A stretch of 64,000 bases of DNA, taken from IMG/VR virus record IMGVR_UViG_3300045988_139374, positions 160,001 to 224,000 of that record; one strand, written 5' to 3'. The stretch comes from a virus. This document shows positions 42 through 48,821 of this stretch, in pieces (position 1 is the first letter of the stretch; the number at the start of each line of letters is the position of its first letter). Position numbers and translations under genes: made by a program. Under the pieces are notes generated by a model that was not told where the DNA came from, searched no databases, and saw only the letters and a list, made by a program, of their open reading frames with translations.

Positions 42-1250
42 ATGATGACGAAAAAAGAATTAATTGACTTTTTAGTTGTATCTGGATACACTAGTAAGTT
101 AATTAAAAAGATCAAATATGTTGGAGTAAATTATAAAGGAGAAGATATATTTGAATTTACCCACATTGGTCGCACGATATTGATCAATGCTACCGATCTA
201 GCAAACTATCTCAGAGAATATGGTAGCTATATTAGTAGATATGAAGATGAAGAGAAAGATAGCTTTAAATATTTGTGCCAAAAGTATAGTTCTCATATTC
301 TTGAACCTATTGTAAGATATTGTGATAATATCTTTGATCCAAATGATTATATTGGGTATAGACATGCAGATGATCATTATACATTTGGAAGTTGCACTAT
401 TTTAAAGAATCTTGCAAGTAAAGATTGGAAGTATAAAACTATCAATGCAGAATTTACTCCAAATAATGCAATAAAGTTCTTGACTACTACATATGTATAT
501 ACAATGTGTAGATGCGGAACTGTTAATTATATTACATTAGACGATGCAATGTCTCAATACCCTACATGTACCAAATGTAGTTTGATCAGCCACATTACTT
601 ATCAATTGAATCATGATAGAAGTGAATCTAATTCTAGTATTCACTTCTATGATGCAATTGATATTAATCATTGTAGATTTAAATGTATTAATTGCGGTAC
701 TATATACACTGAAAATATGGAAAGTGTTGTGGTACAAAATAGGAGATATGGTAAATGCGTAGCTTGCTATGCTAAAGAGCAGATTCCGAAAATTATTGGA
801 AAGAAGCATGGCAAACTTACAATAGTTGATGCAGTTCCTGTAATTGATGAGAATGATCATCATATATCTTACTATAATGCAAAATGCAAATGCAAGTGTG
901 GAAGAACTGTATACGCTAAATATGAAATTAGACCTTCTGGGAACAAATTATACGGAACCAGCTGCAAATATTGCGATAAGAAATATCCTGGGTCCATGGA
1001 GGGTATTGATGCTCGTAAAGGAGAGAAGCATGGTAAGTTAAAAATCATAAAGAAAGCATATACATATTACAATGCTGATGGCATTAAAGATTTTAATACT
1101 GTGCAACGTGTAATCTGTCAATGTGAATGTGGAAACTTTACCATAGTTCCATTTAGTGCTCTTAAATTAGGTAAAGTAAAATCTTGTGGTCATTGCGGAA
1201 AGAAAATAACTCTTCCTTTCCCTTATGATTTGTCATTTTATGAAATGTAG
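42..1250 (+). CDS. Cys-rich multi zinc-ribbon repeat protein, function unknown (paralog of 30393..31142)
   Basis: 402-aa ORF; AAGGAG about 11 nt upstream of ATG; repeated modules KHGKLTI/KHGKLKI followed by CxC...CG...CxxC; hairpin terminator follows. Confidence 0.6.
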   Translation: MMTKKELIDFLVVSGYTSKLIKKIKYVGVNYKGEDIFEFTHIGRTILINATDLANYLREYGSYISRYEDEEKDSFKYLCQKYSSHILEPIVRYCDNIFDPNDYIGYRHADDHYTFGSCTILKNLASKDWKYKTINAEFTPNNAIKFLTTTYVYTMCRCGTVNYITLDDAMSQYPTCTKCSLISHITYQLNHDRSESNSSIHFYDAIDINHCRFKCINCGTIYTENMESVVVQNRRYGKCVACYAKEQIPKIIGKKHGKLTIVDAVPVIDENDHHISYYNAKCKCKCGRTVYAKYEIRPSGNKLYGTSCKYCDKKYPGSMEGIDARKGEKHGKLKIIKKAYTYYNADGIKDFNTVQRVICQCECGNFTIVPFSALKLGKVKSCGHCGKKITLPFPYDLSFYEM

Positions 1251-1394: not shown

Positions 1395-2218
1395 ATGGCT
1401 ACAATTAGGCAAATTAAAGTTAAAGATACATTGTATGATATTTCACCGTCTCCTAGTGGTACGCTTGATACCACTACTAAAGATAATGCATTTGCTTCTA
1501 GTGATGTTGCTCAAGCAAGTGCAACTTCTTGGACTGATGTAGCTGCTCTTGCTGCAACTGAAACTAACAAGAGCATGTTCACAAAAGCTACTCAGATGAT
1601 GAAAAATACCAGATACCTATATAATATTATTGGTACTGGTTTTAGTACTTCTAGTACTATTAAGAAAGCTATTGATGGAAAAGCAGCATCTAATCATAGT
1701 CATGATCTGAGTGCTATGATCAATGGACTTTCTGTTGGATCTGCTACTCCTCAAGATGCGGATTATTATGTGTGCCAATATGCGGGGGGGGGAACACCAC
1801 TTCCACATATCATAGAAGGCCGATGACTGCTCTTTGGGATTATATTAAGTCTAAAGGAAATAGTACTTGGCAACCTAAAGGAAGCTATGCTGCTGCAAAC
1901 CATAGTCACAATTATGCAGGATCTGGAAGTGCTGGTGGATCTGCAAATAGTGCAGTAAAGTTGGATACAGCAACTGCTGGTTCTACTACTCAACCTGTAT
2001 ACTTTAGTGGTGGTAAACCTGTAGCAATTGGATATACTATTGCTAAGAGCGTTCCTGCTGATGCTAATTTTAGTAATACTTGGCGTGGAATTCAGAATAA
2101 TCTTACTTCTACAGCAACAGATCAGTCCCTATCTGCTGCTCAGGGTAAAATTTTGAAAGATGCTCTTGATAAAAAGACTGGAGTTAGTGTATCTGGTACC
2201 ACTGTAGTATTTGGATAA
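1395..2218 (+). CDS. tail fibre protein with HxH motifs; reading frame broken at a G9 tract
   Basis: Track ORFs 1380..1826 and 1772..2218 overlap at G9 (1784-1792). The joined product reads ...YYVCQYAGGG|NTTSTYHRRP.... N-terminal ~110 aa are paralogous to 3172..4431 (FASSDVAQ, RYLYN, GTGFST, NHSH). ATG at 1395 follows GGGGG. Confidence 0.7.
1784..1792 (+). repeat. G9 homopolymer at the frame junction of the fibre gene
   Basis: Counted directly: gcGGGGGGGGGaacacc; +1 G or -2 G (or a -1 slip) fuses the two frames. Confidence 0.9.
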
Positions 2219-3171: not shown

Positions 3172-4431
3172 ATGGCTATAATTGATAAAATTAAGGTTGG
3201 TAGCACTACCTATGATGTGTCGCCTTCTGCTTCTGGTACTCTGAACACTACTGGCACTACTAAGTTTGCTTCTAGTGACGTTGCTCAGGGAAATGCAACT
3301 GGCTGGACTAATGTAGATCAGATGACCACTGCTGATAACCATGCTACTCTGTTTACTAAGATCACTCAGATGGCAAAGAACGTCCGCTATCTGTACAATG
3401 TTCTTGGTACTGGCTTCTCCACTGGTTCTACTGTTAAGGGTCAGATTGATGGAAAAGCAGCAGCTAATCACTCTCACAAGGTTGCTCAACTGCCTACTTC
3501 TAGTACTCAAGTTAACTCCAATGACTATATTCCTACTTCTGCTCTGATCTATTCTATGAATCAGACTCTAACTTCGCTAAATGACGCTAGTAATAAACTT
3601 GGAGTCAGGATTTATAATACTAAATATGCAGTTGGAGGTATTCCTACCAAATCCCAATTTGCTGCAACTGACACTGTACAAAGCATTATTATTAAAATGC
3701 TAGGAGATATGGGTCAGAAACCCATTGACTCTTCTACACCTAATACAAGATATAAGTCTCAGAATCTTGGTACTTGGTCTAGTGTTAGTGATGTAGATAA
3801 TTTTCTTTATAGTTGTTGTCATGATACTGGTTATTATGGTGCTACTATTGGTAGTTATGTTACGATTAAAGATGGTGTATATAATAAAGAATGGATTATT
3901 GCTGGTTTTGATTGTGAAAAGAATCATAAAGCTTCCGATGGCAATACAAAGGATAATGGATATGGTATATGCTTAATACCTAAGAAGAGCTTAGGTAATT
4001 ATGTATGGGATTCTAATTCTATTATAAATGGATACAACGGATCTGAAATGCATAAGTCTACATTACCTGTAGTTGCGAATAATCTTAGAAAAGTATTAGG
4101 AAATCATCTTGTACAGCGTAATGTCCTTCTGAGTAATGCTGTAGATTCTAACTATTATGCTAAAGGCTATTTTTGGACTACTGCATATTGTACTCTTATG
4201 AGTACAGGACAAGTAACTGGTACATTTGCTTCTAATAGAAACAAGTATGATGATGGAGAAGCTAATTATAAACTTCCTTTGTTTAATTATGAAATATGGA
4301 GTTTTGATACCTGGGCCTGGTTGCGAGGGCTATTCGGCTACGGTGTCTATGGCCTTACCACTTCTGGTGGTTCTGGTTATGACATCTGTTACGTTAGTCA
4401 CGGTCTTCGCCCGCTCATTTATATTAGGTAA
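3172..4431 (+). CDS. DGR target: tail fibre / receptor-binding protein with C-terminal variable region
   Basis: 419-aa ORF. The N-terminus is paralogous to fibre 1395..2218 and includes NHSH. The C-terminus WAWLRGLFGYGVYGLTTSGGSGYDICYVSHGLRPLIYIR-stop resembles the CLec/FGE-type VR scaffold; the VR lies within the last ~115 nt of the ORF. Confidence 0.85.
   Translation: MAIIDKIKVGSTTYDVSPSASGTLNTTGTTKFASSDVAQGNATGWTNVDQMTTADNHATLFTKITQMAKNVRYLYNVLGTGFSTGSTVKGQIDGKAAANHSHKVAQLPTSSTQVNSNDYIPTSALIYSMNQTLTSLNDASNKLGVRIYNTKYAVGGIPTKSQFAATDTVQSIIIKMLGDMGQKPIDSSTPNTRYKSQNLGTWSSVSDVDNFLYSCCHDTGYYGATIGSYVTIKDGVYNKEWIIAGFDCEKNHKASDGNTKDNGYGICLIPKKSLGNYVWDSNSIINGYNGSEMHKSTLPVVANNLRKVLGNHLVQRNVLLSNAVDSNYYAKGYFWTTAYCTLMSTGQVTGTFASNRNKYDDGEANYKLPLFNYEIWSFDTWAWLRGLFGYGVYGLTTSGGSGYDICYVSHGLRPLIYIR
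4317..4417 (+). repeat. DGR variable region (VR)
   Basis: 101 nt align to TR with 12 mismatches, every one opposite a TR adenine. Confidence 0.9.
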
Positions 4432-4437
4432 TGGAAC

Positions 4438-4456
4438 TAGCCACCTTGTGTGGCTA
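4438..4456 (+). promoter_or_regulatory. hairpin just 3' of VR (candidate DGR homing-enhancing hairpin/cruciform)
   Basis: TAGCCAC 4438-4444 / loop CTTGT / GTGGCTA 4450-4456, about 20 nt after the VR end and 7 nt after the stop codon. Confidence 0.5.
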
Positions 4457-4537
4457 AGTGGAATTACCGTAATATAAATGAAAGGTGAAGGCTTAACGAG
4501 TAAATATATTATTAATATAAAATAAGAGGTGGTTTGT

Positions 4538-5347
4538 GTGTCTGTCGTTAAGGGTAAAAGAAATCAATCTGATGTTGAATATTTTGATTATGCATATAAA
4601 GTTGTGGAGCATATAACTAAATTTCTTTTATCTGATCTTGGGATTAAGAAAACTTATAGAGACTTAAAAGTTTTTACTTATAAATCTCATATGGAGGAAG
4701 CTGATAAAGAAGAATTTGAGCATTTAGTAAATAAGTATGATTTGGAATTGGAAACAGATTTTCCTAATTGGCTAATGTGCTATTATAGAGAAACATTATT
4801 AACAATCATGAGAGATCTAATCAATAATATATCTGCAGCTTATACACTATATCCAAATTCTGTTTATGAATTTAATATCAAGAAACAGTATATTTCTGAT
4901 TCTATAGCTAATTGTTTCGATTTAAAACATCAACTCCAATTAGTAATTAGAATATTTCCAGCAAATATGAAGAAATATATTCCATTTGTAAAAGAAATCG
5001 ATAAGGAAATAGAGCTTCTTAAACAGTGGCGAAAGAACTTTACAGGAATTTCTAAGAAGCATTGCTACAATCAAGATGAAATCGCTAAGAGAGATGCTAT
5101 TAAGAGAGTAAATAAGATTGAAGCAAAGAATGAGCGTAAACTTCAAGTGAACAATAATTTCCTTGTAGAATATATGAAAGCAGTTTACACTCAACAAGTG
5201 CTTATGGATAATCTATATCATACAACCTTCTATTATAATCAGCAAAATCAGTATTGCTCCGAACTGCCTATTGCAGCTTGTACATTCTTTGATCAAAATG
5301 GATATTATATTGGAGATTCTGCTCATGATTTTGTTACAACTAACTAA
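4538..5347 (+). CDS. candidate DGR accessory protein (Avd-like by position), otherwise hypothetical
   Basis: ORF lies between the target gene and TR. In-frame GTG at 4538 follows AAGAGGTGG. Predicted helical and basic. At ~270 aa it is longer than a typical Avd. Confidence 0.5.
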   Translation: MSVVKGKRNQSDVEYFDYAYKVVEHITKFLLSDLGIKKTYRDLKVFTYKSHMEEADKEEFEHLVNKYDLELETDFPNWLMCYYRETLLTIMRDLINNISAAYTLYPNSVYEFNIKKQYISDSIANCFDLKHQLQLVIRIFPANMKKYIPFVKEIDKEIELLKQWRKNFTGISKKHCYNQDEIAKRDAIKRVNKIEAKNERKLQVNNNFLVEYMKAVYTQQVLMDNLYHTTFYYNQQNQYCSELPIAACTFFDQNGYYIGDSAHDFVTTN

Positions 5348-5378
5348 ATAGTAAGGTGACTCTCTATAAATAATCTCG

Positions 5379-5497
5379 CTGGTTGCGAGGGCTATACGGC
5401 AACAACAACCTCAACAACAACAATGTCTATGGCCTTACCACTTCTGGTGGTTCTGATTATAACAACTGTAACAATAGTAACGGTCTTCGCCCGATCA
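5379..5497 (+). repeat. DGR template region (TR)
   Basis: 119 nt, AAC/AAT-rich (WLRGLYGNNNLNNNNVYGLTTSGGSDYNNCNNSNGLRPIN in the VR frame), intergenic between avd-like gene and RT. Confidence 0.9.
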
Positions 5498-5651
5498 ACA
5501 GCATCTTGGCAATTTAAGGATCGAAAGATCTGGCCAGGATGTCTGTATGAGGAGGGAGTTCCCTTTCCGAAAGGAAGAAACAATAAAGCTGGCTACGGTT
5601 CTGGCATTACGATGCTGAATCTATTGGGCTGGTATATTTTTTTTTATTTTT

Positions 5652-6938
5652 ATGATTATTGATTTTAGTAATGAAGATTGGGGCGAAAATCCCTGTGAAT
5701 ATACTGAAGGAAAATTAGATTCTATTGCAGATCCAGATAAATTATATCAATCTTATAGAAAAGCTTCTAAACCAATTTATTATAAAGCATCTACTCAAAG
5801 ATATGGATTAAATCTATTATCTAATATTGCTATTGCAAATGAAGCATTAAATAATGGATCTTATAAAATTGGAGATCCATATGAATTTATTCTCACAGAA
5901 CGCGGTAGAATTAGATATGTAAAAGCATTATATATGTTTGATCAAGTAGTGCAGAGATCTTTCAATGATAATGTATTAAATCCTGCTATTGCTAATAAGA
6001 TGATTTATGATAATGGAGCTTGTGTAAAAGGAAAAGGTGTTGCTTTTACAAGAATGAGATTTAAGCAGCATCTACAACAAGCATATTATCAATTTGGATA
6101 TGATGGTTATATAATGATCATCGATTTTTCTAAATATTTTGATAATATTCTTCATCAAGAAGCTTTAAAACAATTCGAACCTCTATTAACGCCAGAAGAA
6201 TACAATTTTCTTAAAATTACTTTTGATACATTCAAACTAGATGTATCTTATATGTCAGATGCAGAATATCTAGAAGCTAGAGATTCTCTGTTTAATCTTC
6301 TAGAATATTCTATGATGGCAAAAGAAAATTTCAAAGGATTAAAGCTTCTTGAAAAGTCTGTTGGAATTGGTAATCAAACTTCTCAAGGAACTGGAATGTA
6401 CTATCCTCATGAAATAGACAATTATGTGACTATAGTAAGAGGATATGGATTATATGGAAGGCATATGGATGATACATATGTATTTGCTAAAACTAAAGAA
6501 GAATTACAACAACTTCTTGAAGAAATAAAAGAATTGTGTAAGAATCTTGGAATTCATATTAATCTTAAGAAAACTAGAATAGAACCCATCAAGAATACAA
6601 TTTCATATCTTAAAATAAATTATAAAATTATTGAAACTGGAAGAGTATTTGAATTAGTCCCAAATAAAGTATTTAAAAGAGAAAAAGATAAATTAACAAA
6701 ATATAGGGATCTTTGCATTCAATATAAAATGACTGCTATTACAGTTCTTCAATGTTATCTTAGTTGGAGAGGTGTATATAATAAATTTGATTCTAAAAGA
6801 AAAATATATGCACTGGATTGCTATTTTAAAGATCTTTATTGTTTAGGATTTAGAGATACAAATCTATATGATTTGTTGCATTTCTATATGCGTGTAGAAA
6901 GAGAGAAATTAAATAACTATCCAGTCATGAAATATTAA
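5652..6938 (+). CDS. DGR reverse transcriptase
   Basis: IIDFSKYFDNI (motif A-like), VGIGNQTSQ (the DGR-typical [I/L]GNxxSQ), YGRHMDDTYVF (YxDD box). Confidence 0.9.
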   Translation: MIIDFSNEDWGENPCEYTEGKLDSIADPDKLYQSYRKASKPIYYKASTQRYGLNLLSNIAIANEALNNGSYKIGDPYEFILTERGRIRYVKALYMFDQVVQRSFNDNVLNPAIANKMIYDNGACVKGKGVAFTRMRFKQHLQQAYYQFGYDGYIMIIDFSKYFDNILHQEALKQFEPLLTPEEYNFLKITFDTFKLDVSYMSDAEYLEARDSLFNLLEYSMMAKENFKGLKLLEKSVGIGNQTSQGTGMYYPHEIDNYVTIVRGYGLYGRHMDDTYVFAKTKEELQQLLEEIKELCKNLGIHINLKKTRIEPIKNTISYLKINYKIIETGRVFELVPNKVFKREKDKLTKYRDLCIQYKMTAITVLQCYLSWRGVYNKFDSKRKIYALDCYFKDLYCLGFRDTNLYDLLHFYMRVEREKLNNYPVMKY

Positions 6939-7747: not shown

Positions 7748-9463
7748 ATGGAAAACAATAATGTCAATCTATCTAAATATGGATATCAAGAGCAAAGATA
7801 TCCTATTGATACTACTGGCTATAAGCAACTTCATGACTATAACATCGAGTATCAGATGGCACATCAGAAGGAGTTTAACTTCCTTCAGCCTCTTCCTAAT
7901 GATCTTATGTCTACTACTAAGACATATCCTCATTCTGATGAGTTTGAGTTTTCTGGACAGCTTGAAATCATTAATTATGATAAAGCTTGTGAAGAAGACC
8001 TTAGGGAAGGAAATGGTTTTATTGTAGAACCAGCTGGTAGAAATATCAAGAAAGATCTTCATGCTGAGGATGGTATTTTCTCTCCTAAGTTTGGACAAAC
8101 CTTGGCTGATACTAATCCTTTTATGGATCGTTATCGTTGTCGGTGTAAAGAAGGAGGGCTTCGTGGCCGTAATAATGCCGGTTTGCGTTGTCCAAAATGT
8201 GGTCATCTATGTTCTTATGTAGATGATAATTTTAATTATCGTGGATGGATTAAACTTTCTGAGCCTTATAAGTTTATTCATCCTACCTTCTACACTTATA
8301 TCGATTCTATCCTTGGTAAAGGTATCTATATCCAGGGTAATAAGCGTACTAAGCTTGAAAATATTCTTGACGTTACTGATACTCAATTGGTTCTTAATTC
8401 TATTAAGATTGATGATCCCAAACTTAAAGATGAACCGTTCTTTGGTATTGGAATGATTGCTTTTGTCGAACGCTTTGATGAGATCATGGATTATTATATC
8501 AAGAAGCGCCCTAATAAGCGTAATTATTATGATGCCATTTATCAGTCTCGTGATTCTGTATTTTCATCTTCGCTTCCTGTCATCACTACATTGCTTCGTC
8601 CGTTCGATATAGATGGCAACAACATGACCTATGAGCCAACGAATGCAATGTATACAATGATTAATAAACTTGCTACTTCTATTAATAAGAATAAAACTGC
8701 TATCCAGAGAGAACCTAAAATCAAGAACCAGCAGCTTTATAATCTTCAAAAGAAGTTTATGGAAATTTATGCTGAACAAATTTCTATTCTAGCAGGTAAG
8801 AAGGGAGATTTTAGATGTCTACTTGGTGGACGTTATAACTTCTCTTCTCGTTGTGTTATTGTTCAAAATCCTAATCTTCGTATTGATGAGATTACTATGC
8901 CTGCTGTAGCATTGACTGTTATGCTTGAGCAAAGAATTAAAAATATTCTCTGCCGTATGCATGGTATGACTCCTACACAAGCACATGATATTTGGTATAA
9001 AGCTACTATTGAGCCTAATAAACGTATAAATACCATTATTCAATCCATCATCGATGATTTTAAACACAAAGGCATGCGTGGGCTTCCGGTTATCATTGGA
9101 CGAAATCCTACACTTGCTTATGGCTCTATTCTGCAAATGTTCTGTGTTGGGATTACTGATTCTTATACCTTAGCAGTTCCTCTACAGATCTTAAAATTCT
9201 TGGCTGCTGACTTCGACGGCGACGTTATATATTGCTTGGTTCCGATGAATCAGACTTTTATTCGTCTTGCTTGGGAAAAATTCAATCCTAGGAATGCTAT
9301 GTATATTTCTAGAGATAATGGATATTTCAATCCCAATGCATTGATGCAAAGAGATACACTTATTAATGCTAATACTTTAGCAAGATTAGGAAGGGAGAAT
9401 TACACACAAGAAGATCTTAATAAGTTCGATAGAATTCAGAAAGCTATTAAAGCAGCTGGTTAA
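7748..9463 (+). CDS. multisubunit RNA polymerase beta-prime-like subunit, N-terminal fragment
   Basis: CRCKEGGLRGRNNAGLRCPKCGH (CxC...CxxC zinc ribbon); GRNPTLAYGSILQM (compare NRAPTLHRLGIQAF); LAADFDGDVIY (catalytic DFDGD at 9209-9223); only 571 aa, so a split beta-prime. Confidence 0.8.
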   Translation: MENNNVNLSKYGYQEQRYPIDTTGYKQLHDYNIEYQMAHQKEFNFLQPLPNDLMSTTKTYPHSDEFEFSGQLEIINYDKACEEDLREGNGFIVEPAGRNIKKDLHAEDGIFSPKFGQTLADTNPFMDRYRCRCKEGGLRGRNNAGLRCPKCGHLCSYVDDNFNYRGWIKLSEPYKFIHPTFYTYIDSILGKGIYIQGNKRTKLENILDVTDTQLVLNSIKIDDPKLKDEPFFGIGMIAFVERFDEIMDYYIKKRPNKRNYYDAIYQSRDSVFSSSLPVITTLLRPFDIDGNNMTYEPTNAMYTMINKLATSINKNKTAIQREPKIKNQQLYNLQKKFMEIYAEQISILAGKKGDFRCLLGGRYNFSSRCVIVQNPNLRIDEITMPAVALTVMLEQRIKNILCRMHGMTPTQAHDIWYKATIEPNKRINTIIQSIIDDFKHKGMRGLPVIIGRNPTLAYGSILQMFCVGITDSYTLAVPLQILKFLAADFDGDVIYCLVPMNQTFIRLAWEKFNPRNAMYISRDNGYFNPNALMQRDTLINANTLARLGRENYTQEDLNKFDRIQKAIKAAG

Positions 9464-12919: not shown

Positions 12920-13001
12920 GCAGGAATGGTGGAATGGCAGACACGCTAGACTTAGGATCTAGTTCTTCGGAGTGAGGGTTCAAGTCCCTTTTCCTGCACC
13001 A
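12920..13001 (+). tRNA. tRNA-Leu (anticodon TAG), class II with long variable arm, CCA encoded
   Basis: Acceptor GCAGGAA/TTCCTGC; anticodon stem CTAGA/TCTAG with loop CTTAGGA; T-arm GAGGG-TTCAAGT-CCCTT; variable hairpin TTC-TTCG-GAG. Confidence 0.85.
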
Positions 13002-13033
13002 TGTAGAATTATCTCCCCTAATTCTACTCATAA

Positions 13034-13110
13034 GGGCTATTAGCTTAGTTGGTCAGAGCTTCTGGCTCATAACCGGATGGTCGTAGGTTCGAGTCCTACA
13101 TGGCCCACCA
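13034..13110 (+). tRNA. tRNA with CAT anticodon (elongator Met or Ile2), CCA encoded
   Basis: Acceptor GGGCTAT/ATGGCCC; anticodon loop CTCATAA; T-arm GTAGG-TTCGAGT-CCTAC. Confidence 0.85.
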
Positions 13111-14672: not shown

Positions 14673-17600
14673 ATGGCTAAGTCTAAAAACAAAGACAACA
14701 ATAAAACTGGCCCTATTGCATATGCCAAAAATGTAGTAAAGTCTGCTAAGTATATTGCTGTTGAGACTGCCAAGGGTGTTAATCCTACACTTACTAGCTA
14801 TATTGCTGATAATGCTTCTGCTGCAAAGGATATGTACAATGCAGCGAAGGATTATAAAGGAACTATTCGTAAGAAGCTAGAAGACTCTATTGGATCTAAA
14901 AATACCGATCAACTTGGACAAATTAAGAAAGATATTTTTAGTGATCTAAAATCTGGTAAATTCTACAATCCTGAACGTGAAGCAGAGTCCATGAACAAAC
15001 TAGCAGAATCTTGGGGAATGACTTCCTTTGATTTTGATATGGATGATGATTTCGATCTAGATTCTGATAATGATGACGATACTGATAGCTCTACTACATC
15101 TTCTAAATCTAATGATATAGATGTAGTTACTGGAGCTATCCATGGTCTTGGAAATCAGATTTCTTATCACCAGCTTATTACTGGTGAGGGAATTGCTGGT
15201 AAGATCGGTGGAGCTAATATCAAGAATACTAGAGCAATGATGACAAATAATAATAGACTCGCTGGAATGTTGAATAATTCCTTGTCTGTTATTAATACTT
15301 CTATTCTTGATCTTCATAAGGATCTAGTAGAACCTCTCAATGGACACATTCAGAATTCTACTAGTTTTTATCAAACAGCTACATCTGAGCTGGCTAAGCA
15401 AACTAGTTATTTGGAGACTATCACTAAACTACTAACAGATAGATTTGCTCCCGTTGCCACTAGTAAAGGTAGTGGAATTAAAGAGACTCCTTGGGAAGCA
15501 GTTATGGGTGGAGATTTGCCGAATCTAGGTAACTGGATTAAGCATGCCAAGAATAAATCAATGGAAGATTCTGGAATGGACTCCCTTGCTGCTATTATGA
15601 ATCCTGAGATGCTGGAGACTTTACTAGGTGCTGGTATGCATTCTCCTATTGCATTGGCAATTACTATGGCTCTTACATCTAAGATTCAAAATGGCCCTAC
15701 CGGTAAAGCTCTAGATAGAACTGTCAATATTTTTAGAGATGGTATGATGAAGGTCGCTGGACAGATTCATAAAGCATCTAAGAATGATGGTATTCTAGGT
15801 ACCATTGCTAGTTTCTTTGACATTACTCCTCATTTTAATCCTAAGATGAATTTCGGTAATTATAATAAGGGACGAGTAGATTGGACTGGTAAGGACTCTA
15901 AAGCACTGAGAGATGTTATTCCTACTTATCTAGCAAATATTGAAGCTTTGCTATCTGGCAGAGAAGCTAAAGTATTTAACTATGAAACTGGTAGATTTAC
16001 ATCTGCAAGTAATGGCTTTAATGAATTTAAGAAATCTAGACAGGCTAATATCGGTAATGCTTCTAAGGGTATGAAGGAAGAACTTCTTCAAGAATTTATC
16101 GATGAAGATAAAGAGAAGTATAAGAATGATGAAAACCATATTGCTTATACTAGAGAATCTAGAGCTGTTAGAAATCTATCTGATGATTATGATAAGATGA
16201 TGTCTCTTATTACTCTAAATCATATTGATCCTTCTAAATTTGATTCTGCTCAGAGTATGCTTACTCTTCTTCGTCAAAGAGGATGGATTAATGATGATCC
16301 TACTAAGGGATTCATTTCTAACAAGAATGCTCGTGCTATTGCTAGACTTATTTTCAAGAAAAAGTCTGGTGTTGGTAAAATGAATAATGCTATCTATTCT
16401 GGACAGATTGCAAATGCTAGATTTGTTGATACTATCAATGAAACTAATCCTATGTTTGCTGCAGTGGCAAATGGATCTGGTATGACTAATACTCACAAAC
16501 TAAAAAGCAATCTAAATAAGAATAGTGCAGATGCTGTTACTATGGCACTTGATGATCATGGTAATAATATTTTCTTCTATCTGCAAGATTATTATAAGCA
16601 AATTAGAGTTATGGTAGACTCTATGTCTGCATCTAACTTTAATTTGTCTACTATCAAGAATGAAATTATTAGTAGATTTAATGGAGGATTTGGTAATACA
16701 GAAAACTCCACTGGAACTTCTGGTAATAGACGCCAGCCTAAGAAGAGAAAAGAATCTTCTAGAGCAAGTAGAGCAGCTGCTGCAGATGCTGGAGCTGGCG
16801 GCTCAGACTCTGGATTTAGATCTCTATATAATTTCAATTACGACGTTCCTAACAATATAGCTCCTGAGATTATTACTCCTGAAATGGCCGAAGCTTCTGC
16901 TGGAGCTTCGGAGAGAGAAGCTGCAATTGAAGATCCTGAAGGAAGAATGGTATATAATTCCTCTACTAAGCGATATGAAGCTCCTAAGGCTTCTTCTAGA
17001 GGATCTTTCCTAAAGTTTAAGGAAAATGCTAAAGATCATAGTATCCTATCTATCATCGTTGATAAATTCAATGATTTTATGGATAATACGCTCTTCGGTA
17101 ATGCGCCTGCTGCATTTAAGCAGAAGATTGACGAAGAAGGTGGTCTGTTCGGATACCTGCAATCTTTGCCCAATAAGATTGCTACAGGTCTACAGGATCT
17201 TCCTGATAAAATTGCAAATAAAACTAGTGAATTATGGAAGAAGTTCCAGGAATCTGATTTTGGCAAGAAATTCATGGAATCTTCTAAGAATATTATTTCT
17301 AGTTTCTTTAAAGATACAGAACAATATGCTGAAAGAAAAGCTCAGGGTACTTTAAAGTATCTATTTAAGAATACTAGATTTGATCTCGATAAGAAAGAAA
17401 AAGAAAACGAAGAGGCAATTAATGGACCTATTGCTCTATTACCTCAACATGCTGAATCTTTAATTCCTGAAGATGCTAATCCTGAAGGATCTTATAGAGG
17501 TGGATTAGTTAATAAATCTGGAATGGTTTCTGTTTCTAAAGGTGAATTGATTGTTCCTGCAAAATATAATCCTCTTTATAATGGTGGATTGTCTGATAAA

Positions 17601-20600
17601 CAGAGAGAACAGATTGAGCATAGAAACTATAGAAACTGGAAAAAGGCTGGTGGCAAGGGTAAGTTCTTTGGATTCTTTGCTGAAGGCGGTACTGTTGGAG
17701 AAGCGGATAATTCTCCAAATCTAACTGATGAACAGGCTAATATTATTCTTAATGGATTTAAGAATAACAAGCCTACTGTAGATATTGCTAATGAAGCTGG
17801 AATTGATGAAAAAGTCATTCAAGACATGAGAGTTGAGTATGAGAAAGATAAACTCAATGCAAGTCTTGAATCTATGAAAAAGAGTTTCAAGAAATTTGCT
17901 AAAGTAGCATCTAAAGTTGGCAATGCTGTTAAGAATCAAGCAAAGAAAACTTCCGTGTATCAAACTATTGAGCACGGAGTTAAATATGTATATGAAAGAG
18001 CAAAGCAATCTTCTGACTATATTTTTGGCGATTCTGATGTATATAAAAATATCAAGAAAACTGGAAATGAAGTTGTAAAGGCTGCTAAAGCTGATCTTCC
18101 TAAGGTTGCTGCTGGTGGTGCACTGGGTGCACTTGCAGGTGCTGCTCTAACTGGATCTGGATTGGGTCTAGTTGGTGGTATGGCCATTGGTGCTGGTAGC
18201 ATTATTCTTAAGAATTCTGATACTCTATCTGAAGCACTGTTTGGTAAATTTGATGAAAATGATAAGCTAGTTAAGAAGGGAATCTTACCTCCTAAACTTT
18301 CTAAATTCATTACTGATAAACTTCCAGATGCTGCTAAAGCTGGTGCTATTGGTGCAACGCTTGGTACCTTTGGATTAGCTCCTGGAGGTATCATGGGAGG
18401 CTTTGTACTTGGAGCTGGACTTGATCTAGTTTCTAATACAAATGCTTTCCAAAACATTATGTTTGGACCTAAAGGTGCAGATGGAGAAAGACACGGTGGC
18501 ATCGCTGGATCTATCAAGAATAGAGTTGTTGATCCTCTTATTGCATTTACTGAAAATGGAATGGAGAAGATCAAGAATTTCTTTACTACTAATTTTGTAG
18601 ATCCTGTAAAGAGATTTGTTAATCCTCTAATAGACTATGTCAAGGGTAAAGCTAAGAGTATTGTATCAGATTTTATTGATAGTGCTAAAGATATTGTCAA
18701 GCGCACTATCGGTGAAAAGTTTGATATTCTATTTGGACCTCTTGTAAATCTTGCTAAAGGATTAGGTAAGAAAGCCTTTAGACTAGCAAAGGGTGTAGTT
18801 ACTGCTCCTTTTAAAGCTCTTGGTGGTGTTGGTGATGCTCTGCAAAGACACAATATCAATGCAGGCTATACTAGACTATCTGTTGAAGAACGTGAATATT
18901 GGCGCAAAGAGCATAATAAGAATAAATTCTTTGGACTCAGAGGAAAGAAGATTAAAGAATCTGCTCTTGATAAGTGGGAACTCAGCCTTGATGAGAATAA
19001 GAGAGGCGATCTCATTAGAGAAGCAAATGATTATCTTAATTCTCCTACTGAGCTAAAGAATCAGAAGCATAAAGCTCGTCAGGAATTAAGGGATAAGATC
19101 ACTGCTTCTATGCCTAATGCTGGACTTGGTGAAGATCATGCACTAGGTAAAAAACTCAATAGACTGATGAATAGTGAAGACGTTGTAAAAAATAATGACT
19201 ACACTAAAGTCAGAAAATTTGTCGAAGGGCTGAATATCAGTGATGAAGACAAAGAGAAACTTAAGAAGTCTATTATTGATACAACTGCTAAAACAACTAA
19301 AATTACTGATAAGATTGCTAATTTTGATGTCAATAAAGAGCAATTCTTTAGAGAACAAGGTCTAGATATCAATAACATGTCTAGTAAAGAACTCAGAAGA
19401 ATGAGAAATCAGCTAGGTATTGATGTCAAGAATGAAGATGAGAAAGCAAAAGCTAAATCTGAGGATAGACTCAAAGAGCTCAAAGAAAAGGATGAAAAGG
19501 CTAAGAAGCTAGCAGAAGAAAAGCGTATGAATATGATTGGCAATATTGTCGATTATGTTTCCATTATCGCTGGATACGTTGAAACTCTAATGGGTAAGAC
19601 TAAATCTTCTGTTACTGGAAAGCCTTTTGAATCTCCTAGTGAGAATTTTGAGACCTCTCTAATGACTAATGAACAAGCTAAAGCTGAAGAAGCTAAATCT
19701 AGAATTGGTAAAGATACAGCAATAGATGCTGAATTTACTGAAGTTAAAGATGATAAGAAGAAGCCTGAAATTGCTATTAATGCAGATGCTATTGATAGAG
19801 TAGTAAATCTTGCTACAAGAGGAGTATCTGTAGCAATAATTGCTAAACGACTCAGTATTTCTGTAGATAAAGTAAAAGAGATTATTGCTAATAATAGAGC
19901 TGCTATTCTTGCTGCTAAAGCTACTGGACAACTAGATGGAGTTGGAAAGGCTGGCGCATCTGTAAAAGATGGTGGTAAGCTTATTGGGAACAATTCTCAA
20001 GATGATGGCGAACAAGGAATCATTACTAAGATAGATGCAGATGGCAATCCTATGCAATACATGCGTAATGCCAAAGGAGAGCTCGTTCTTAATACTGCCG
20101 ATGCTGCTACCAAAACTGCATCTGAAGAAAAGAAAAAGTCTAATGAACTAAGAGATAGATTCTATGGAATGTGGGTCAATGGAGGAATCCTCGGAAAACT
20201 CAAAGATCTACTATCTCCTAAACAGGAAAAAGAAAAGAAGAAAACTCTACTGGATACTATTAAGGAGAAACTTGCCGATGCTGCAGGCGCAGTTGGCGGA
20301 GCAGTTTCGAATTTCTTAGGATCTAGTATCGGAACTTCTCTTACATCTTTCCTTGGATCTCTAGGTAAAGATATTATCACTAATCTTCCTTCTATTCTAG
20401 GAACTGCTGCTACAGTAGCTGGTGCTGTTTACCTTGGTAAGAATGCTGCTGGTACAAATAACGATTCCGGAATGCGTAAAGGAATGGATCCTGAAGAACG
20501 TAAGAAGGAAGTAGAGAATTCCAGCCTCTTTAATAAATTCACTCTTGGCGTAGATTCTCTAGAAACTAGAATTAGTGGCAAAAAGATGACCACCTATGAT

Positions 20601-23600
20601 CAAGATGATCATGTGAGTGAATTCTTCACTTCTAAGTGGAAAAAGAGAATTGGAAAGAATGCTCTCATGAGCTTTAATCCTGAGACAGCCGCATCTGCTA
20701 CTGCTGCTTCTAAGCTTATTAGTAAGATTCCTATTGTAGGAAAGACTTTTGGTAAACCTCTAGAAGCTGGCGCTAATGCTGCATCCATTGTTGGTAAAGC
20801 AGGAAAGGCTCTAACTGGTAATTTCTCTATCATTGATCCAGATAAGGCATCCACTGCTGATAAGGGTCTAGAACTAGTTTCTAAGATTTCTAGTAAGGCT
20901 CTTGGTTCTGTTAAACAAATTCTAAAACTTATATCTAAGAAGCTTGGAAATTCTGGAGAATGGGTAGATTCTGCTGCTGAGAGTATTTCTACTGCTTTGG
21001 GCAAAGCTGGATCTAAAGTATCTGGAGTGCTATCCAAGCTTACTGGTGTTATCTATATTGCACAAATTGCACTCGCTGTTGAAGATGGCTTTGAAGATGC
21101 AAGAGCTATGAGCATCTTGGGTATCATTGAAAAGCCTTCTCTTGGCGAAAAGTGTCTAGCTGCTGCATGTAATGGTATTAACTATGCTATTCCTGGTATT
21201 GGTGGTATTATTGGTACTTCCACTATCTTTAATATCGTATTTAATGTCCTTTCTAATTTTATTAAGTTTGGTACTCTTGCTACTAAGAGAGCTGAAGCTC
21301 AAGAGACTGTTAAGCAATATAATGAGGAAACTGGTCATACATACAATGTAGAAGAGTACATCTACAATGTATTGAATATGAGCACTACTCAGGATAAGGT
21401 TAAGTCTTGGGCAAAGAATACTGTAAGTTCTGTTAAGAACACTATTACAGATATCAAAGAAGGTAAACTTACTGTTGGACAAGCAGCAGCAAAGGTAGGT
21501 AAAGGTATTGTAAATGCTGGAAAATCTGCTGGACATTGGATTGCCGGTGTTGGTAAATCTGCAGTTAATGCTCTTGATAGTACTAAGATAGGGCACAAAG
21601 TAGTTTCTGGAGTTAAGACAGTTGCTAAAGCTGCTGGAGAGAAAATCTCTAGTGGTGTTGATGTAGTTAAGGATGCTGTATCTGCATTTAATAAAATGCA
21701 AGATAAGCTGAAAGCTACATTTAAGAGCAAGGATACTACATTTGCTGATATGGTAAATACCCATGTTGATATCGATGAAGATAATCCTCTTGCTGGATTT
21801 ACCAAGGGTGTAGGTGAAGTATCTAAGGTTGTTATGATTCCTAGCCTCTACATTGGAGCTATCGGAAGAAAACTATATAATGACGTTTTGAAACCTACTG
21901 GGCAATCTCTATTACAGGCCGGTACTGATACTCTTGAAACTTTGAAGTCTGATGGACAACTTGCACTACAAGGAGATCTGATTGGACTCTGGAAAAATTC
22001 TACTACTGCAAGTCAAGACAACGATATGTGGTTCATTCCTGGAATGGCTAATATCGGAGCTAAGGTTGCACTTACTGGGCCTACTATGATATTCGGAGCT
22101 GCTAAGCAAGCTTGGGGAGTCATTAAGGGTATTGGCAGCGGAATTAAAGCTGCTGCTGATACACTAGGTGCTAGTTATGATGCAGCTAAGGGTTATTGCT
22201 CTAATGGCGATATGGGAGGTCTATGGACCAAGACTGATTCCGATAAGGGTGAAGAAGGTCAAACTGCTCTAGGCTCTATTCTATCTGCAACTTCTGATTC
22301 TGTCATGAAGGTTGCATTGACTATACCTACTGCTGTAAACTGGGTTGGAAAGAAACTCGGTGGACTGTTCAGCAACATAGCAGCTGCAATGCCTGATGTT
22401 GGTGTAATGGTTGATGATCTTTGGTCTTTCACATCTTCTGATAAGAACATGGATGATTTCTCTAAGACTGTTGATTCTTATAAGTCTAAAGACACTGGTG
22501 TATTTAGTCTCATTGGTAATGGCATAACTACTATTATTGGTGGTATTATGCACCTAGCAGTTGGTTTCTTAAAGCCTTTTATTTCTCTTGGAAATAAATT
22601 CTCCAATGTGGTTAATTCCGCTGGAGATTGGGTTAATAGTAAACTTACTAGCTTTAAGAATTGGCTAAATGGAGACGATGATGATTCTGATTCTAAAGAA
22701 GCATCTGGATCTGGCTCTGGAATTCATACTGAGCAAAAGGGTAACTATACTAAGTTTGGCAATAGTACAATTGATGCAGATGGATGTGGTCCTGCTGTAG
22801 CTTCTACTGTTCTTAAAGCTTGGGGTAAGAAGTCCAATATTTACAGTGCTGCAAAGTATGCTGAAAAGATGGGCTATGTAGCTGGAAGTTCTAAGGTAGT
22901 AGATAGAGGTACTAAGGCATCTTACTTTGGAGATATCTTCAGTAAGAATGGAATTAGTACTAGATATACAGATAATCAATCTGATATTAATTCCGCTATT
23001 GCATCTGGTAATCCTACTGTCTTGCTTGGTAAAGATTCTCAGAATACTTCCAAGTCTAATAGTCCGTTTGGACCTAATCCTCATTATGTCGTAGCACGTG
23101 GTGAAGATAATAAGGGAAATGTTATTGTTGATGATCCTGAGCTGAAAGGAACTGCACTTTATAAAAAGAGCATTCTTAAGAATGTTAAACTTGGTGCTGT
23201 TACCGGTGGTGCATCTGGAGCAACTGATATTATTAATACTGGACTAAATGCTGGATTTAATGCTATGGCTAATAATTCTAGTGGACCTATGTCTAGTATT
23301 ATTAAGACAATCTTTAGTGGATTTAGTTCCTCCTCTACTGATGCTTCTGGTGATTCCTATGGAGATAGTAGTGCAGGATATGTTTATTCTGGAGATTCTC
23401 CGTTCCCCATTGTTACATCTAAACCTAGTGCTGGTGATCCTTATATTTCTTATTATAATAACTCCAATCGTGGTGGGCAGAATACTTGTATCAATGGATC
23501 TCCTACAGACCCTGTATGCAATGTCTTGTCTAACTGTGTTGGCTGGGTTTCTGGTCGTTTCAATCATATATATAGCGTACTATCTGGTGATAAGACCATG

Positions 23601-24971
23601 AAGTATAAAGCATTCCATAGCAATGCTGGTGATATGTATGAAAAGGCTGCTTCTTTCGGACTTAAAACTGGTTCTACTCCTCAAGCTGGCGCTATCATGG
23701 TTTGGGGTAAACAAGGTGGAGCTGGTCACGTTGCTATTGTAGAAAAGGTTATATCTAGTGATGAAGTCATGACCTCTGAATCTGGATATAATTCTTATGC
23801 ATTTAGAAACAAGAATCGTAAGAAGGGTAATGGAAATTGGGGATCTAATTCTCCTTATTATTTCAAGGGATTTGTTTATAATCCTGCTGTTCAAGATTAT
23901 TATGCTACTCATTCTACTTCTGGCTCTACTAGTAAGAATGCTAAAACTATCTGGCAGAGACTTAAGACTAAGGGAATGTCTGAAAATGGTATTGCTGGTC
24001 TTATGGGATGCTGGAAGAATGAATCGAATTTTAACCCCATTAATTTGGAGAATAAATTCGAAAAGAAGTATGGTAATGATCAGCAATACACTCAGTACGT
24101 TGATACAAATAATAAATGGCCTGATTCTCCTAATGATCATGTCGGATATGGTTTGGCTCAATGGACAGGTGCAAATGGAAATGCTACTTCTGGTAATCGT
24201 AAGCATAATCTACTTGCATACGCTAAGAGTAAAGGAACATCTGTTGGTGATCTGAATACTCAGGTTGATTTTGCTTATGATGAGGTCAAGAATAATTATC
24301 CTAAGGCTTATAGTGCATTGATGAGTGCTTCTAGTCCTTCGGATGGTGCTGCAGCAGCTCTTGGACTTTATGAAATGCCTGGTTGGGGTGTTGATAGAGC
24401 TAAGAGAGATACTAAGTATTATCCGAAACGTAATCAAGCTGCAAATGAGCTTTACAACTCTCTACATGGAACTGCTACTCTTACCGGTACGATTGGTGGT
24501 TCTGGTAGTGCACTTGATACATTGGATAAAGAGGCTCAAGCAATTGAAGCTTCTAGAAGAAACTCTGTATCTAAGAAACCTATTCCTGTTTCTTATGACT
24601 TTACTAAGTCTAAGAATACAGCAAAGAAATTCTCTATTAAGAAGAAAGCAATTTCTAGAGGTTCTGCATCTGATATACCTGAGAATCAAGACATCAATAC
24701 TTCTTCTATGAGTAATGATGAACTTATGCAGGCTATTATACAGTATCTACAGCAAATTGCTAATAATACTTCCAATAATAATACTCTACCTGCAATTCAA
24801 AGTATCTTGAGTGGAATTATCTCGAATATGGGTAGCCTTGCTCAACTAGCAACTTCTGCTGCTTCTAGTGGTGGAAATCTATCTGATAAAGCTGCTCAAA
24901 TGAAAGATAATATCGAACAAGAACTGAATGCAATGAGATCTAAAATGGAAGCATTAGCATCTACTCCGTAA
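14673..24971 (+). CDS. giant virion protein (3432 aa): tape-measure-like with C-terminal triple cell-wall hydrolase module
   Basis: TAAGGAGG RBS. Gly-zipper hydrophobic segments (GGALGALAGAALTGSGLGLVGGMAIGAG). C39-like Cys peptidase (DADGCGPAVAS...PHYVVARG, ~22720-23150). CHAP/NlpC-P60-like domain (SNCVGWVSGRF...GAGHVAIVEKV, ~23470-23830). Phage tail lysozyme-like domain (GIAGLMGCWKNESNF...YGLAQWTG, ~23935-24430). Confidence 0.8.
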   Translation: MAKSKNKDNNKTGPIAYAKNVVKSAKYIAVETAKGVNPTLTSYIADNASAAKDMYNAAKDYKGTIRKKLEDSIGSKNTDQLGQIKKDIFSDLKSGKFYNPEREAESMNKLAESWGMTSFDFDMDDDFDLDSDNDDDTDSSTTSSKSNDIDVVTGAIHGLGNQISYHQLITGEGIAGKIGGANIKNTRAMMTNNNRLAGMLNNSLSVINTSILDLHKDLVEPLNGHIQNSTSFYQTATSELAKQTSYLETITKLLTDRFAPVATSKGSGIKETPWEAVMGGDLPNLGNWIKHAKNKSMEDSGMDSLAAIMNPEMLETLLGAGMHSPIALAITMALTSKIQNGPTGKALDRTVNIFRDGMMKVAGQIHKASKNDGILGTIASFFDITPHFNPKMNFGNYNKGRVDWTGKDSKALRDVIPTYLANIEALLSGREAKVFNYETGRFTSASNGFNEFKKSRQANIGNASKGMKEELLQEFIDEDKEKYKNDENHIAYTRESRAVRNLSDDYDKMMSLITLNHIDPSKFDSAQSMLTLLRQRGWINDDPTKGFISNKNARAIARLIFKKKSGVGKMNNAIYSGQIANARFVDTINETNPMFAAVANGSGMTNTHKLKSNLNKNSADAVTMALDDHGNNIFFYLQDYYKQIRVMVDSMSASNFNLSTIKNEIISRFNGGFGNTENSTGTSGNRRQPKKRKESSRASRAAAADAGAGGSDSGFRSLYNFNYDVPNNIAPEIITPEMAEASAGASEREAAIEDPEGRMVYNSSTKRYEAPKASSRGSFLKFKENAKDHSILSIIVDKFNDFMDNTLFGNAPAAFKQKIDEEGGLFGYLQSLPNKIATGLQDLPDKIANKTSELWKKFQESDFGKKFMESSKNIISSFFKDTEQYAERKAQGTLKYLFKNTRFDLDKKEKENEEAINGPIALLPQHAESLIPEDANPEGSYRGGLVNKSGMVSVSKGELIVPAKYNPLYNGGLSDKQREQIEHRNYRNWKKAGGKGKFFGFFAEGGTVGEADNSPNLTDEQANIILNGFKNNKPTVDIANEAGIDEKVIQDMRVEYEKDKLNASLESMKKSFKKFAKVASKVGNAVKNQAKKTSVYQTIEHGVKYVYERAKQSSDYIFGDSDVYKNIKKTGNEVVKAAKADLPKVAAGGALGALAGAALTGSGLGLVGGMAIGAGSIILKNSDTLSEALFGKFDENDKLVKKGILPPKLSKFITDKLPDAAKAGAIGATLGTFGLAPGGIMGGFVLGAGLDLVSNTNAFQNIMFGPKGADGERHGGIAGSIKNRVVDPLIAFTENGMEKIKNFFTTNFVDPVKRFVNPLIDYVKGKAKSIVSDFIDSAKDIVKRTIGEKFDILFGPLVNLAKGLGKKAFRLAKGVVTAPFKALGGVGDALQRHNINAGYTRLSVEEREYWRKEHNKNKFFGLRGKKIKESALDKWELSLDENKRGDLIREANDYLNSPTELKNQKHKARQELRDKITASMPNAGLGEDHALGKKLNRLMNSEDVVKNNDYTKVRKFVEGLNISDEDKEKLKKSIIDTTAKTTKITDKIANFDVNKEQFFREQGLDINNMSSKELRRMRNQLGIDVKNEDEKAKAKSEDRLKELKEKDEKAKKLAEEKRMNMIGNIVDYVSIIAGYVETLMGKTKSSVTGKPFESPSENFETSLMTNEQAKAEEAKSRIGKDTAIDAEFTEVKDDKKKPEIAINADAIDRVVNLATRGVSVAIIAKRLSISVDKVKEIIANNRAAILAAKATGQLDGVGKAGASVKDGGKLIGNNSQDDGEQGIITKIDADGNPMQYMRNAKGELVLNTADAATKTASEEKKKSNELRDRFYGMWVNGGILGKLKDLLSPKQEKEKKKTLLDTIKEKLADAAGAVGGAVSNFLGSSIGTSLTSFLGSLGKDIITNLPSILGTAATVAGAVYLGKNAAGTNNDSGMRKGMDPEERKKEVENSSLFNKFTLGVDSLETRISGKKMTTYDQDDHVSEFFTSKWKKRIGKNALMSFNPETAASATAASKLISKIPIVGKTFGKPLEAGANAASIVGKAGKALTGNFSIIDPDKASTADKGLELVSKISSKALGSVKQILKLISKKLGNSGEWVDSAAESISTALGKAGSKVSGVLSKLTGVIYIAQIALAVEDGFEDARAMSILGIIEKPSLGEKCLAAACNGINYAIPGIGGIIGTSTIFNIVFNVLSNFIKFGTLATKRAEAQETVKQYNEETGHTYNVEEYIYNVLNMSTTQDKVKSWAKNTVSSVKNTITDIKEGKLTVGQAAAKVGKGIVNAGKSAGHWIAGVGKSAVNALDSTKIGHKVVSGVKTVAKAAGEKISSGVDVVKDAVSAFNKMQDKLKATFKSKDTTFADMVNTHVDIDEDNPLAGFTKGVGEVSKVVMIPSLYIGAIGRKLYNDVLKPTGQSLLQAGTDTLETLKSDGQLALQGDLIGLWKNSTTASQDNDMWFIPGMANIGAKVALTGPTMIFGAAKQAWGVIKGIGSGIKAAADTLGASYDAAKGYCSNGDMGGLWTKTDSDKGEEGQTALGSILSATSDSVMKVALTIPTAVNWVGKKLGGLFSNIAAAMPDVGVMVDDLWSFTSSDKNMDDFSKTVDSYKSKDTGVFSLIGNGITTIIGGIMHLAVGFLKPFISLGNKFSNVVNSAGDWVNSKLTSFKNWLNGDDDDSDSKEASGSGSGIHTEQKGNYTKFGNSTIDADGCGPAVASTVLKAWGKKSNIYSAAKYAEKMGYVAGSSKVVDRGTKASYFGDIFSKNGISTRYTDNQSDINSAIASGNPTVLLGKDSQNTSKSNSPFGPNPHYVVARGEDNKGNVIVDDPELKGTALYKKSILKNVKLGAVTGGASGATDIINTGLNAGFNAMANNSSGPMSSIIKTIFSGFSSSSTDASGDSYGDSSAGYVYSGDSPFPIVTSKPSAGDPYISYYNNSNRGGQNTCINGSPTDPVCNVLSNCVGWVSGRFNHIYSVLSGDKTMKYKAFHSNAGDMYEKAASFGLKTGSTPQAGAIMVWGKQGGAGHVAIVEKVISSDEVMTSESGYNSYAFRNKNRKKGNGNWGSNSPYYFKGFVYNPAVQDYYATHSTSGSTSKNAKTIWQRLKTKGMSENGIAGLMGCWKNESNFNPINLENKFEKKYGNDQQYTQYVDTNNKWPDSPNDHVGYGLAQWTGANGNATSGNRKHNLLAYAKSKGTSVGDLNTQVDFAYDEVKNNYPKAYSALMSASSPSDGAAAALGLYEMPGWGVDRAKRDTKYYPKRNQAANELYNSLHGTATLTGTIGGSGSALDTLDKEAQAIEASRRNSVSKKPIPVSYDFTKSKNTAKKFSIKKKAISRGSASDIPENQDINTSSMSNDELMQAIIQYLQQIANNTSNNNTLPAIQSILSGIISNMGSLAQLATSAASSGGNLSDKAAQMKDNIEQELNAMRSKMEALASTP

Positions 24972-48749: not shown

Positions 48750-48756
48750 TATAAAA

Positions 48757-48797: not shown

Positions 48798-48821
48798 AAA
48801 AAGTAGATTAAAATACAATAA

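Follow-up and report, generated by a model that had tools for sequence, protein, structure and literature searches.

A conserved poly-G tract as a probable phase-variation switch of a tail fibre gene in uncultured gut jumbo phages

Phase-variable surface genes with poly-G or poly-C tracts are known from the contingency loci of Campylobacter, Haemophilus and Neisseria. Fletchervirus phages, which infect Campylobacter, encode up to four receptor-binding proteins (RBPs), and poly-G tracts make two of these phase-variable, as summarised from Sorensen et al. 2021 (Cell Rep 35:109214) in PMC8713573. T2, T4 and other phages carry homopolymer contingency loci at which polymerase slippage causes reversible +/-1 frameshifts, a form of bet-hedging, whereas in the tail-fibre genes of coliphages simple sequence repeats of 6 or more occur less often than expected (Gomez, Barrick & Waters, bioRxiv 10.1101/2025.10.21.683753). 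In the literature searched, experimental demonstrations of poly-G phase variation of phage RBPs are confined to Campylobacter phages, and gut jumbo phages are not described as having poly-G switches. The present analysis concerns a run of nine G's (G9) at positions 1784-1792 of a stretch of 64,000 nucleotides, positions 160,001 to 224,000 of the IMG/VR virus record IMGVR_UViG_3300045988_139374. This whole stretch is called the window, and the tract lies in one of its tail fibre genes.

Read from the sequence, G9 is most likely a conserved, slippage-prone contingency tract that phase-varies the fibre, and may thereby switch host range within a phage population. Throughout a clade of gut jumbo phages the tract occupies the same codon, near-identical genomes differ in its length, and in-frame (ON), -1 and +1 states all occur. 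Of the explanations offered by the initial annotation, namely contingency switch, -1 slippage or error, the first is thus favoured. A G tract of at least 7 in coding sequence, its conservation, its length polymorphism in otherwise identical genomes, the resulting toggling between full and truncated frames, the maintained distal coding sequence and the location in a fibre gene were all observed. A conserved tract with ±1 lengths in identical backgrounds, both out-of-frame (OFF) states, the ON state and an intact open reading frame (ORF) make up the signature of a contingency locus. It is very likely that the tract is a genuine, selected and hypervariable site, and phase variation at the DNA level is considered its probable main mode of action.

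The fibre locus consists of the following features.

1283-1324, + strand: hairpin with a T9 tail (T-run 1316-1324, intergenic), read from the sequence as terminator of the preceding gene and 5' boundary of the fibre unit.
1382-1386, + strand: G5 in the Shine-Dalgarno (SD) position, 8 nt before ATG 1395, in place of the usual AGGAGG-type SD sequence; putative function.
1395-1826, + strand: upstream ORF, encoding the 143-aa OFF-state product with the N-terminal domain, the first NHSH, the DADYYVCQYAGGG motif and the 10-aa out-of-frame tail TPLPHIIEGR.
1784-1792, + strand: G9 homopolymer, the putative switch, its first G being the wobble base of Ala codon GCG.
1793-2218, + strand: distal fibre part in the -1 frame, 141 codons and stop, with NTTSTYHRRPMTALW..., the second NHSH, a PF22337 repeat and the conserved C-terminus GVSVSGTTVVFG.
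1823-1826, + strand: ATGA overlap of the OFF-ORF stop and the conserved Met of RRPM(T/S)ALW in the distal frame, read from the sequence.
2238-2265, + strand: terminator-like hairpin with an 11-bp stem and T-rich tail, 3' boundary of the unit.

The nine G's were read directly, and they divide the fibre gene into two frames as initially annotated. The frame of ATG 1395 reads ...NHSHDLSAMINGLSVGSATPQDADYYVCQYAGGG, followed by TPLPHIIEGR and the stop TGA 1824-1826. This frame extends without a stop from a further ATG upstream, at 1380, although the true start is likely ATG 1395 (MATIRQIKV...), which matches all relatives. Proteins identical to the 143-aa product are present in public data (P0157 and P0151). 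Across the tract, the -1 frame reads GGGNTTSTYHRRPMTALWDYIKSKG... and is open to 2218. The 148 codons with a second NHSH motif ascribed to this frame correspond to the ORF from GTG 1772 (148 aa), of which 141 codons lie past the tract. The window tract is one G short of an in-frame G10, and G7 is in frame as well. Both lengths had been expected to give one 274-aa protein. This is correct for G10 when translated in silico from ATG 1395, while G7 gives 273 aa; all other lengths yield 139-144 aa. The same length-dependent toggling between full-length and truncated products was computed for the tracts of relatives. The ON-state junction peptide is …QYAGGGNTTSTYHR…, and OFF products end in …GGGTPLPHIIEGR or …GGGEHHFHIS. 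No terminator was found between 1395 and 2218, so that both ORFs belong to one transcription unit; overall, 4 terminator-like sites were found, with 0.6 expected in shuffles.

A cassette of ~68 nt, comprising a hairpin terminator, a T9/T10 tail and CAAAAAGTAGATTAAAAT, is located at 1277-1345, upstream of the fibre gene. It is repeated almost exactly at 48747-48816, after gene 47937-48749, with the T-run varying between T9 and T10 in the two copies. This cassette may be a shared terminator combined with a phage promoter or leader.

On sequence grounds, the gene encodes a tail fibre. The Pfam family PF22337 (phage tail fibre repeats) matches the downstream half with an E-value of 5.5e-9 and is carried by hundreds of fibre-like homologues. 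The fibre contains HxH motifs, and the module bearing the tract is situated between two of them. Furthermore, the N-terminal ~105 aa have a paralogous counterpart in the neighbouring fibre (3172-4431), the target of a diversity-generating retroelement (DGR), and are common to many paralogues. These first ~105 residues probably form the virion-attachment or trimerisation part, and the fibre as a whole may serve in receptor binding.

The tract is not expected from the composition of the window, which has 32.8% GC. Both an independent and identically distributed model and a first-order Markov model predict ~0.01 runs of G>=9. Runs of 6-8 G or C are absent from the 64 kb, and the only longer ones are G9 and one intergenic G10. 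Among 33 long ORFs, GGG accounts for 3.2% of Gly codons and GCG for 1.2% of Ala codons, and GGG-GGG-GGG has a probability of ~3e-5 by codon usage. A/T runs of 9 or more occur ten times, all ten in intergenic positions, and G9 is the only long homopolymer within coding sequence in the window.

The intergenic G10 at 41990-41999 directly follows a TATAAT-like box and fills the SD position, with 7 nt between it and ATG 42007. The gene that follows encodes a 326-aa protein without an assigned family and has paralogues at 43611-44525 and 44584-45447(-). In IMG/VR no relatives of this protein were retrieved, and the gene is absent from one related contig (L137). A scan with the flanks of this G10 gave 12 candidate matches.

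Alleles in relatives of the fibre gene were collected by pattern scans requiring only the flanking codons and from contigs fetched via database proteins. The tract is found at the same codon in relatives of ~70-97% identity, with lengths of G5, G7, G8, G9, G10 and G11. The flanks range from near-identical to ~70% identity, with a synonymous divergence (dS) of up to ~1, and the homopolymer is retained throughout. The alleles, written with the preceding codon, are as follows.

In frame: GCT-G9 (L001/L083, L112, L145); GCA-G9 (L110, L122).
One G short: GC-G9 (window); GCA-G8 (L103/L117, L143); GCT-G8 (L146-L149); GTA-G7 (L114, a 164x contig).
One G long: GCA-G10 (L144); GC-G11 (L111, L081); GC-G10 (L079); GT-G10 (L080).
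Contracted, OFF: GC-G5 (L082).

The closest IMG/VR relative, L001, has 94% nucleotide identity and carries GCT-G9-AAC in frame, encoding a 789-aa fibre. The window has GC-G9-AAC; since the Ala wobble base is itself G, its run is one G short. The statement that G9 splits the gene therefore holds for the window, but the closest relatives have the same G9 in frame with a different Ala wobble base (GCT/GCA-G9 instead of GCG-G8). A series of GCA-G8, GCA-G9 and GCA-G10 occurs in flanks ~95-98% identical to those of the window. As a control, homologous motifs in other fibre architectures were inspected, and all 17 of 17 are in frame with mixed Gly codons. Here, the Gly-Gly-Gly is spelled GGA GGT GGA, GGC GGT GGA or GGA GGA GGC. 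The protein motif thus needs no homopolymer, and frame breaks are confined to the homopolymer.

An isogenic pair is formed by L145 (ON, on a 242.7-kb contig) and L146 (OFF, from another biosample). In 5,925 nt they differ at two sites only, with G9/G8 in the tract and T10/T11 in the tail of the upstream terminator. The G8 allele was recovered in four assemblies from at least two biosamples. Corresponding pairs are seen at the protein level: P0184 (450 aa, ON) equals P0152 (143-aa stub) plus P0183 (307-aa distal ORF), and P0197 (748 aa, ON) matches the 605-aa distal ORF P0199.

The distal part of the fibre is mosaic, with total lengths of 274 aa in the window and 450, 538, 728, 748, 789 or 1007 aa in close relatives. 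The mosaic forms (window 1395-2218; L001 3001-5370, L111, L122) end in a common sequence of ~12 residues, GVSVSGTTVVFG, and their breakpoints lie near HxH motifs. The variants P0001, P0026 and P0192 are devoid of the entire tract-bearing module. A second, independent poly-G site was found in a paralogous fibre gene of related ~260-277-kb phages, after ...KFCN at L138 3999-4005 (G7) and L139 3999-4006 (G8). Neither copy is in frame, and the frames of the two differ; with G6 or G9, fibres of 515-651 aa would result. No equivalent of this tract occurs in the window.

A search with the N-terminal 133 aa returned only ORFs of 125-153 aa, in clusters of 121 and 29 members. They include 38 distinct OFF N-terminal fragments, 17 with a -1 tail (TPLPHIIE...) and 21 with a +1/-2 tail (EHHFHIS or longer). 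The resulting impression that OFF is nearly universal (0 ON versus 38 OFF) was rejected, as the ON proteins reside in clusters missed by the N-terminal query. At least 11 distinct ON sequences cluster together with distal-half ORFs from OFF genomes, and by exact-sequence look-up the ON proteins of L001 and L122 were located in the collection on six contigs each. The 430-aa P0175, considered as another ON form, was rejected as a downstream-half ORF. ON is a substantial minority: it accounts for ~5 of the 19 contigs verified at the DNA level and for 11 or more of ~49 listed protein sequences; sampling is too uneven for these counts to be claimed as a departure from the one-third expected under neutral slippage.

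The gene is split in most sampled genomes, and the window version is short (274 aa compared with 450-1007 aa elsewhere). Both would fit a decaying pseudogene, in which a frameshift has inactivated the fibre gene and the gene is being lost. This explanation is already largely refuted and extremely improbable. In OFF genomes, the distal frame continues without a stop over 140-874 codons, in a genome of 33% GC. In OFF-OFF pairs with dS of 0.14-1.1, the Nei-Gojobori ratio of non-synonymous to synonymous substitution (dN/dS) ranges from 0.05 to 0.30 in the distal halves and from 0.09 to 0.27 in the proximal ones, scored for both with the same filter, on blocks of at least 50% amino-acid identity only. 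The open distal frames and the purifying selection seen in the low dN/dS indicate that the OFF gene is not a pseudogene. Furthermore, the sole lesion is always at the tract, which is conserved against codon bias, and ON alleles of the same strains exist.

Several points weigh against a phase-variable switch. All comparisons are between genomes and use assembled consensus sequences only, whereas the switch implies heterogeneity within a population. The only two differences in the L145/L146 pair are homopolymers, where sequencing errors concentrate, and coverage is as low as 2-6x for several contigs (L111, L117, L122). In addition, OFF consensus sequences outnumber ON (~14 versus 5 DNA-verified contigs and 38 versus at least 11 distinct proteins). 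Lastly, the AlphaFold2 model of the 143-aa OFF product, built from a 27-sequence alignment, reached a predicted local distance difference test score of 53.5 and a predicted template modelling score of 0.34, which is too poor to show the stub as a folded attachment domain.

Low coverage and the second homopolymer difference in the isogenic pair would fit sequencing or assembly error, in which the true genome is in frame and G9 is a miscall, and homopolymers of 9 or more are indeed error-prone. For the window, the assembly error suggested at first is unlikely, as three assemblers agree on G9. Over 3,326 nt that include G9, three assembled sequences agree with the window at 100% identity: a 269,204-bp scaffold (SAMEA2338710) and two contigs, one from MEGAHIT and one from Logan. 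The source reads of the Logan contig are from run ERR414329, a human gut metagenome. As all three assemblies apparently derive from the reads of this one sample, their agreement excludes an assembler artefact, not a read-level miscall. Error in general is nevertheless very improbable, given the repeated recovery of G8 described above and an OFF allele on the 164x contig L114. Dozens of distinct OFF sequences are known in both directions, mixed-codon homologues are never broken, and random miscalls would keep the in-frame length as the usual consensus.

The majority of OFF consensus states argues instead for recoding during expression. Here, the genome would be out of frame, and a fraction of transcripts (made by host or phage multisubunit RNA polymerase, RNAP) or of ribosomes would slip, which would set a low ratio of long to short fibre. 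Although either OFF frame is found, the constraint on the distal half equals that on the proximal half. The phage encodes its own multisubunit RNAP, and G GGG GGG is formally a slippery heptamer of the type X XXY YYZ, although this is trivial for any G-run of 7 or more. Recoding is nonetheless considered unlikely as the main mode, although slippage on a G-run of 9-11 nt during expression may contribute. Many alleles are in frame, some of them matching OFF alleles apart from the tract, so that the out-of-frame arrangement is not conserved. The dedicated -1 ribosomal frameshift put forward earlier is not supported by the frame relationship, which is not conserved: homologues are in frame, -1 or +1, and relatives would require opposite shifts or none. 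No stimulatory structure was found downstream in 1793-1892 (-20.3 kcal/mol, z = -0.92, 32 of 200 shuffles folding equally well). For transcriptional slippage, the run length is adequate, but at least 11 alleles are in frame. The programmed transcriptional slippage sites known in bacteria are A/T runs; such runs are easy to evolve at 33% GC and are absent from the coding sequence of the window.

A related, doubtful possibility is that the out-of-frame genotype is functional. Slippage of the phage RNAP or of ribosomes on the G-run, possibly together with reinitiation at the ATGA, would constantly yield a small share of full-length or two-piece fibre from either OFF frame. If so, tract length would tune the fibre stoichiometry per virion rather than act as a binary switch. 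This would also account for the predominance of OFF alongside a distal half as constrained as the proximal one.

The ATGA overlap at 1823-1826 permits a further explanation, a two-piece fibre in which termination-reinitiation in the -1 OFF state makes a separate distal polypeptide starting with MTALWDYIK. The overlap is present in every -1-state allele, gene callers start the distal ORF there (L140 1929-2324; P0183, P0185, P0199), and in the window an SD-like AGAAGG lies 3 nt upstream. The overlap is regarded as incidental because the Met is also conserved in tract-less homologues and is hence a feature of the protein. L001 has AGAAGACCA in place of the SD-like sequence, which is thus not conserved, the +1 OFF states are without this arrangement, and a distal piece without the N-terminal domain would have no evident route into the virion. 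There is accordingly little chance that the fibre is made in two pieces.

The preferred interpretation, a contingency locus switching at the DNA level, would operate as follows. Slipped-strand mispairing during phage DNA replication would add or remove one G. In-frame lengths would yield the full fibre, with the N-terminal virion-attachment domain, distal shaft and tip (274 aa in the window genome, 450-1007 aa in relatives). Out-of-frame lengths would yield an N-terminal stub of ~140-150 aa only. The window allele would represent OFF, one G short (GCG-G8 instead of GCN-G9). A phage population would thus be a mix of virions with and without the fibre, hedging on host receptors alongside the neighbouring DGR-diversified paralogous fibre with the same N-terminal domain. 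Such switching within populations, with attachment through the N-terminal domain, may influence adsorption and host range.

A complete DGR adjoins the poly-G fibre at 3172-6938 of the window, which extends the setting of the switch beyond what the initial annotation had described.

3172-4431: DGR target fibre with the variable repeat (VR) at ~4317-4417 at its 3' end; N-terminal ~105 aa as in the poly-G fibre.
4529-5347: Avd-like ORF.
~5397-5497: template repeat (TR), with every TR/VR mismatch at a TR adenine and an extra 18 nt relative to VR.
5652-6938: reverse transcriptase (PF00078, phrog_1423).

The G9 fibre gene itself is not a DGR target. This phage group may layer an ON/OFF switch, retroelement mutagenesis and module exchange on its fibres, consistent with bet-hedging on host surfaces.

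Two genes upstream of the fibre locus, all relatives carry a tyrosine recombinase of the Phage_integrase family (L001 583-1572; L145 87-1076; L079 1630-2607), which would lie just upstream of the window start. The next gene is Zn-ribbon/HNH-like (window 42-1250). A duplication of 5 nt (AACTT) splits the recombinase of L147.

The phage is an uncultured ~270-kb human-gut phage of the jumbo type, with its own multisubunit RNAP and without a close cultured relative. Its relatives are carried on contigs of 240-277 kb. The locus DNA had no blastn match in the INPHARED phage collection, and a PHROGs search with the fibre proteins assigned no family. AGGAGG-type SD sequences precede most genes of the window, which points to an SD-dependent host, and several virion proteins are encoded in it as well. 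One further feature places the phage in a wider group.

7748-9463: fragment of a multisubunit RNA polymerase, beta/beta'-like (phrog_2987).

The best cultured matches of this fragment are phiR1-37 and AR9/PBS1, at ~29% identity, which places the phage among the RNAP-encoding jumbo phages. The single ORF at 14673-24971 presumably encodes a giant virion-associated protein; it is 3,432 aa long, and an endolysin-like domain (phrog_20388) lies around residues 3087-3237. Genes for tRNA-Leu (anticodon TAG) and tRNA-Met (CAT) are neighbours at 12920-13110, in a low-GC region (26% GC at 10-12 kb).

A putative poly-G switch that is conserved but variable in length among uncultured ~270-kb gut phages, a widespread clade, suggests that such switching is a more general strategy. 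Diversification appears stacked in these phages, with the switch beside a DGR fibre, a second paralogue with its own tract, and modules apparently shuffled at HxH motifs. For annotation, it follows that fibre genes split at G-runs in metagenomic phages should not be dismissed as errors or pseudogenes. The contingency interpretation predicts mixtures of tract lengths that are visible in reads and shift over time in longitudinal gut data.

Among the described systems, the Campylobacter phages are an apt analogy, as the initial annotation had noted and the PMC8713573 summary of Sorensen 2021 supports. In both cases, as far as this summary goes, an intragenic poly-G of ~8-11 nt lies in a fibre or RBP gene and turns its product ON or OFF through changes in length. 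Tracts of this kind occur in more than one fibre gene of the respective phages, which encode several alternative fibres. In contrast to the Fletchervirus phages as summarised there, the phage described here belongs to another lineage, uncultured gut phages of ~270 kb with a multisubunit RNAP, and its fibre to another family. It also uses Shine-Dalgarno sequences, its switch is placed between two HxH motifs after a common N-terminal domain and beside a DGR-targeted fibre, and its system is known from assembled sequences alone. The T2/T4 loci are mostly A-runs in non-structural genes (agt, rIIA), whereas the window has a long G-run in a fibre gene, against codon bias. Like lambda G/GT, the locus is a tail-related gene in which two frames overlap, and its run is formally slippery. 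It differs in having in-frame alleles, a shift direction that varies, no conserved frame relationship and no stimulator. As in DGRs of the BPP-1 Mtd type, receptor binding would be diversified, and the DGR of the window, 1-5 kb downstream, targets a paralogous fibre; the mechanism would be homopolymer slippage rather than reverse-transcriptase-mediated adenine mutagenesis. Bacterial contingency loci would share this mechanism and show the same population signature, with alleles differing in tract length alone, ON and both OFF frames, and an intact ORF. The tract described here is virus-encoded and would act on the receptor-binding apparatus of the virion instead of the cell surface. The proposed poly-G switch in gut jumbo phages thus places a known mechanism in a new setting.

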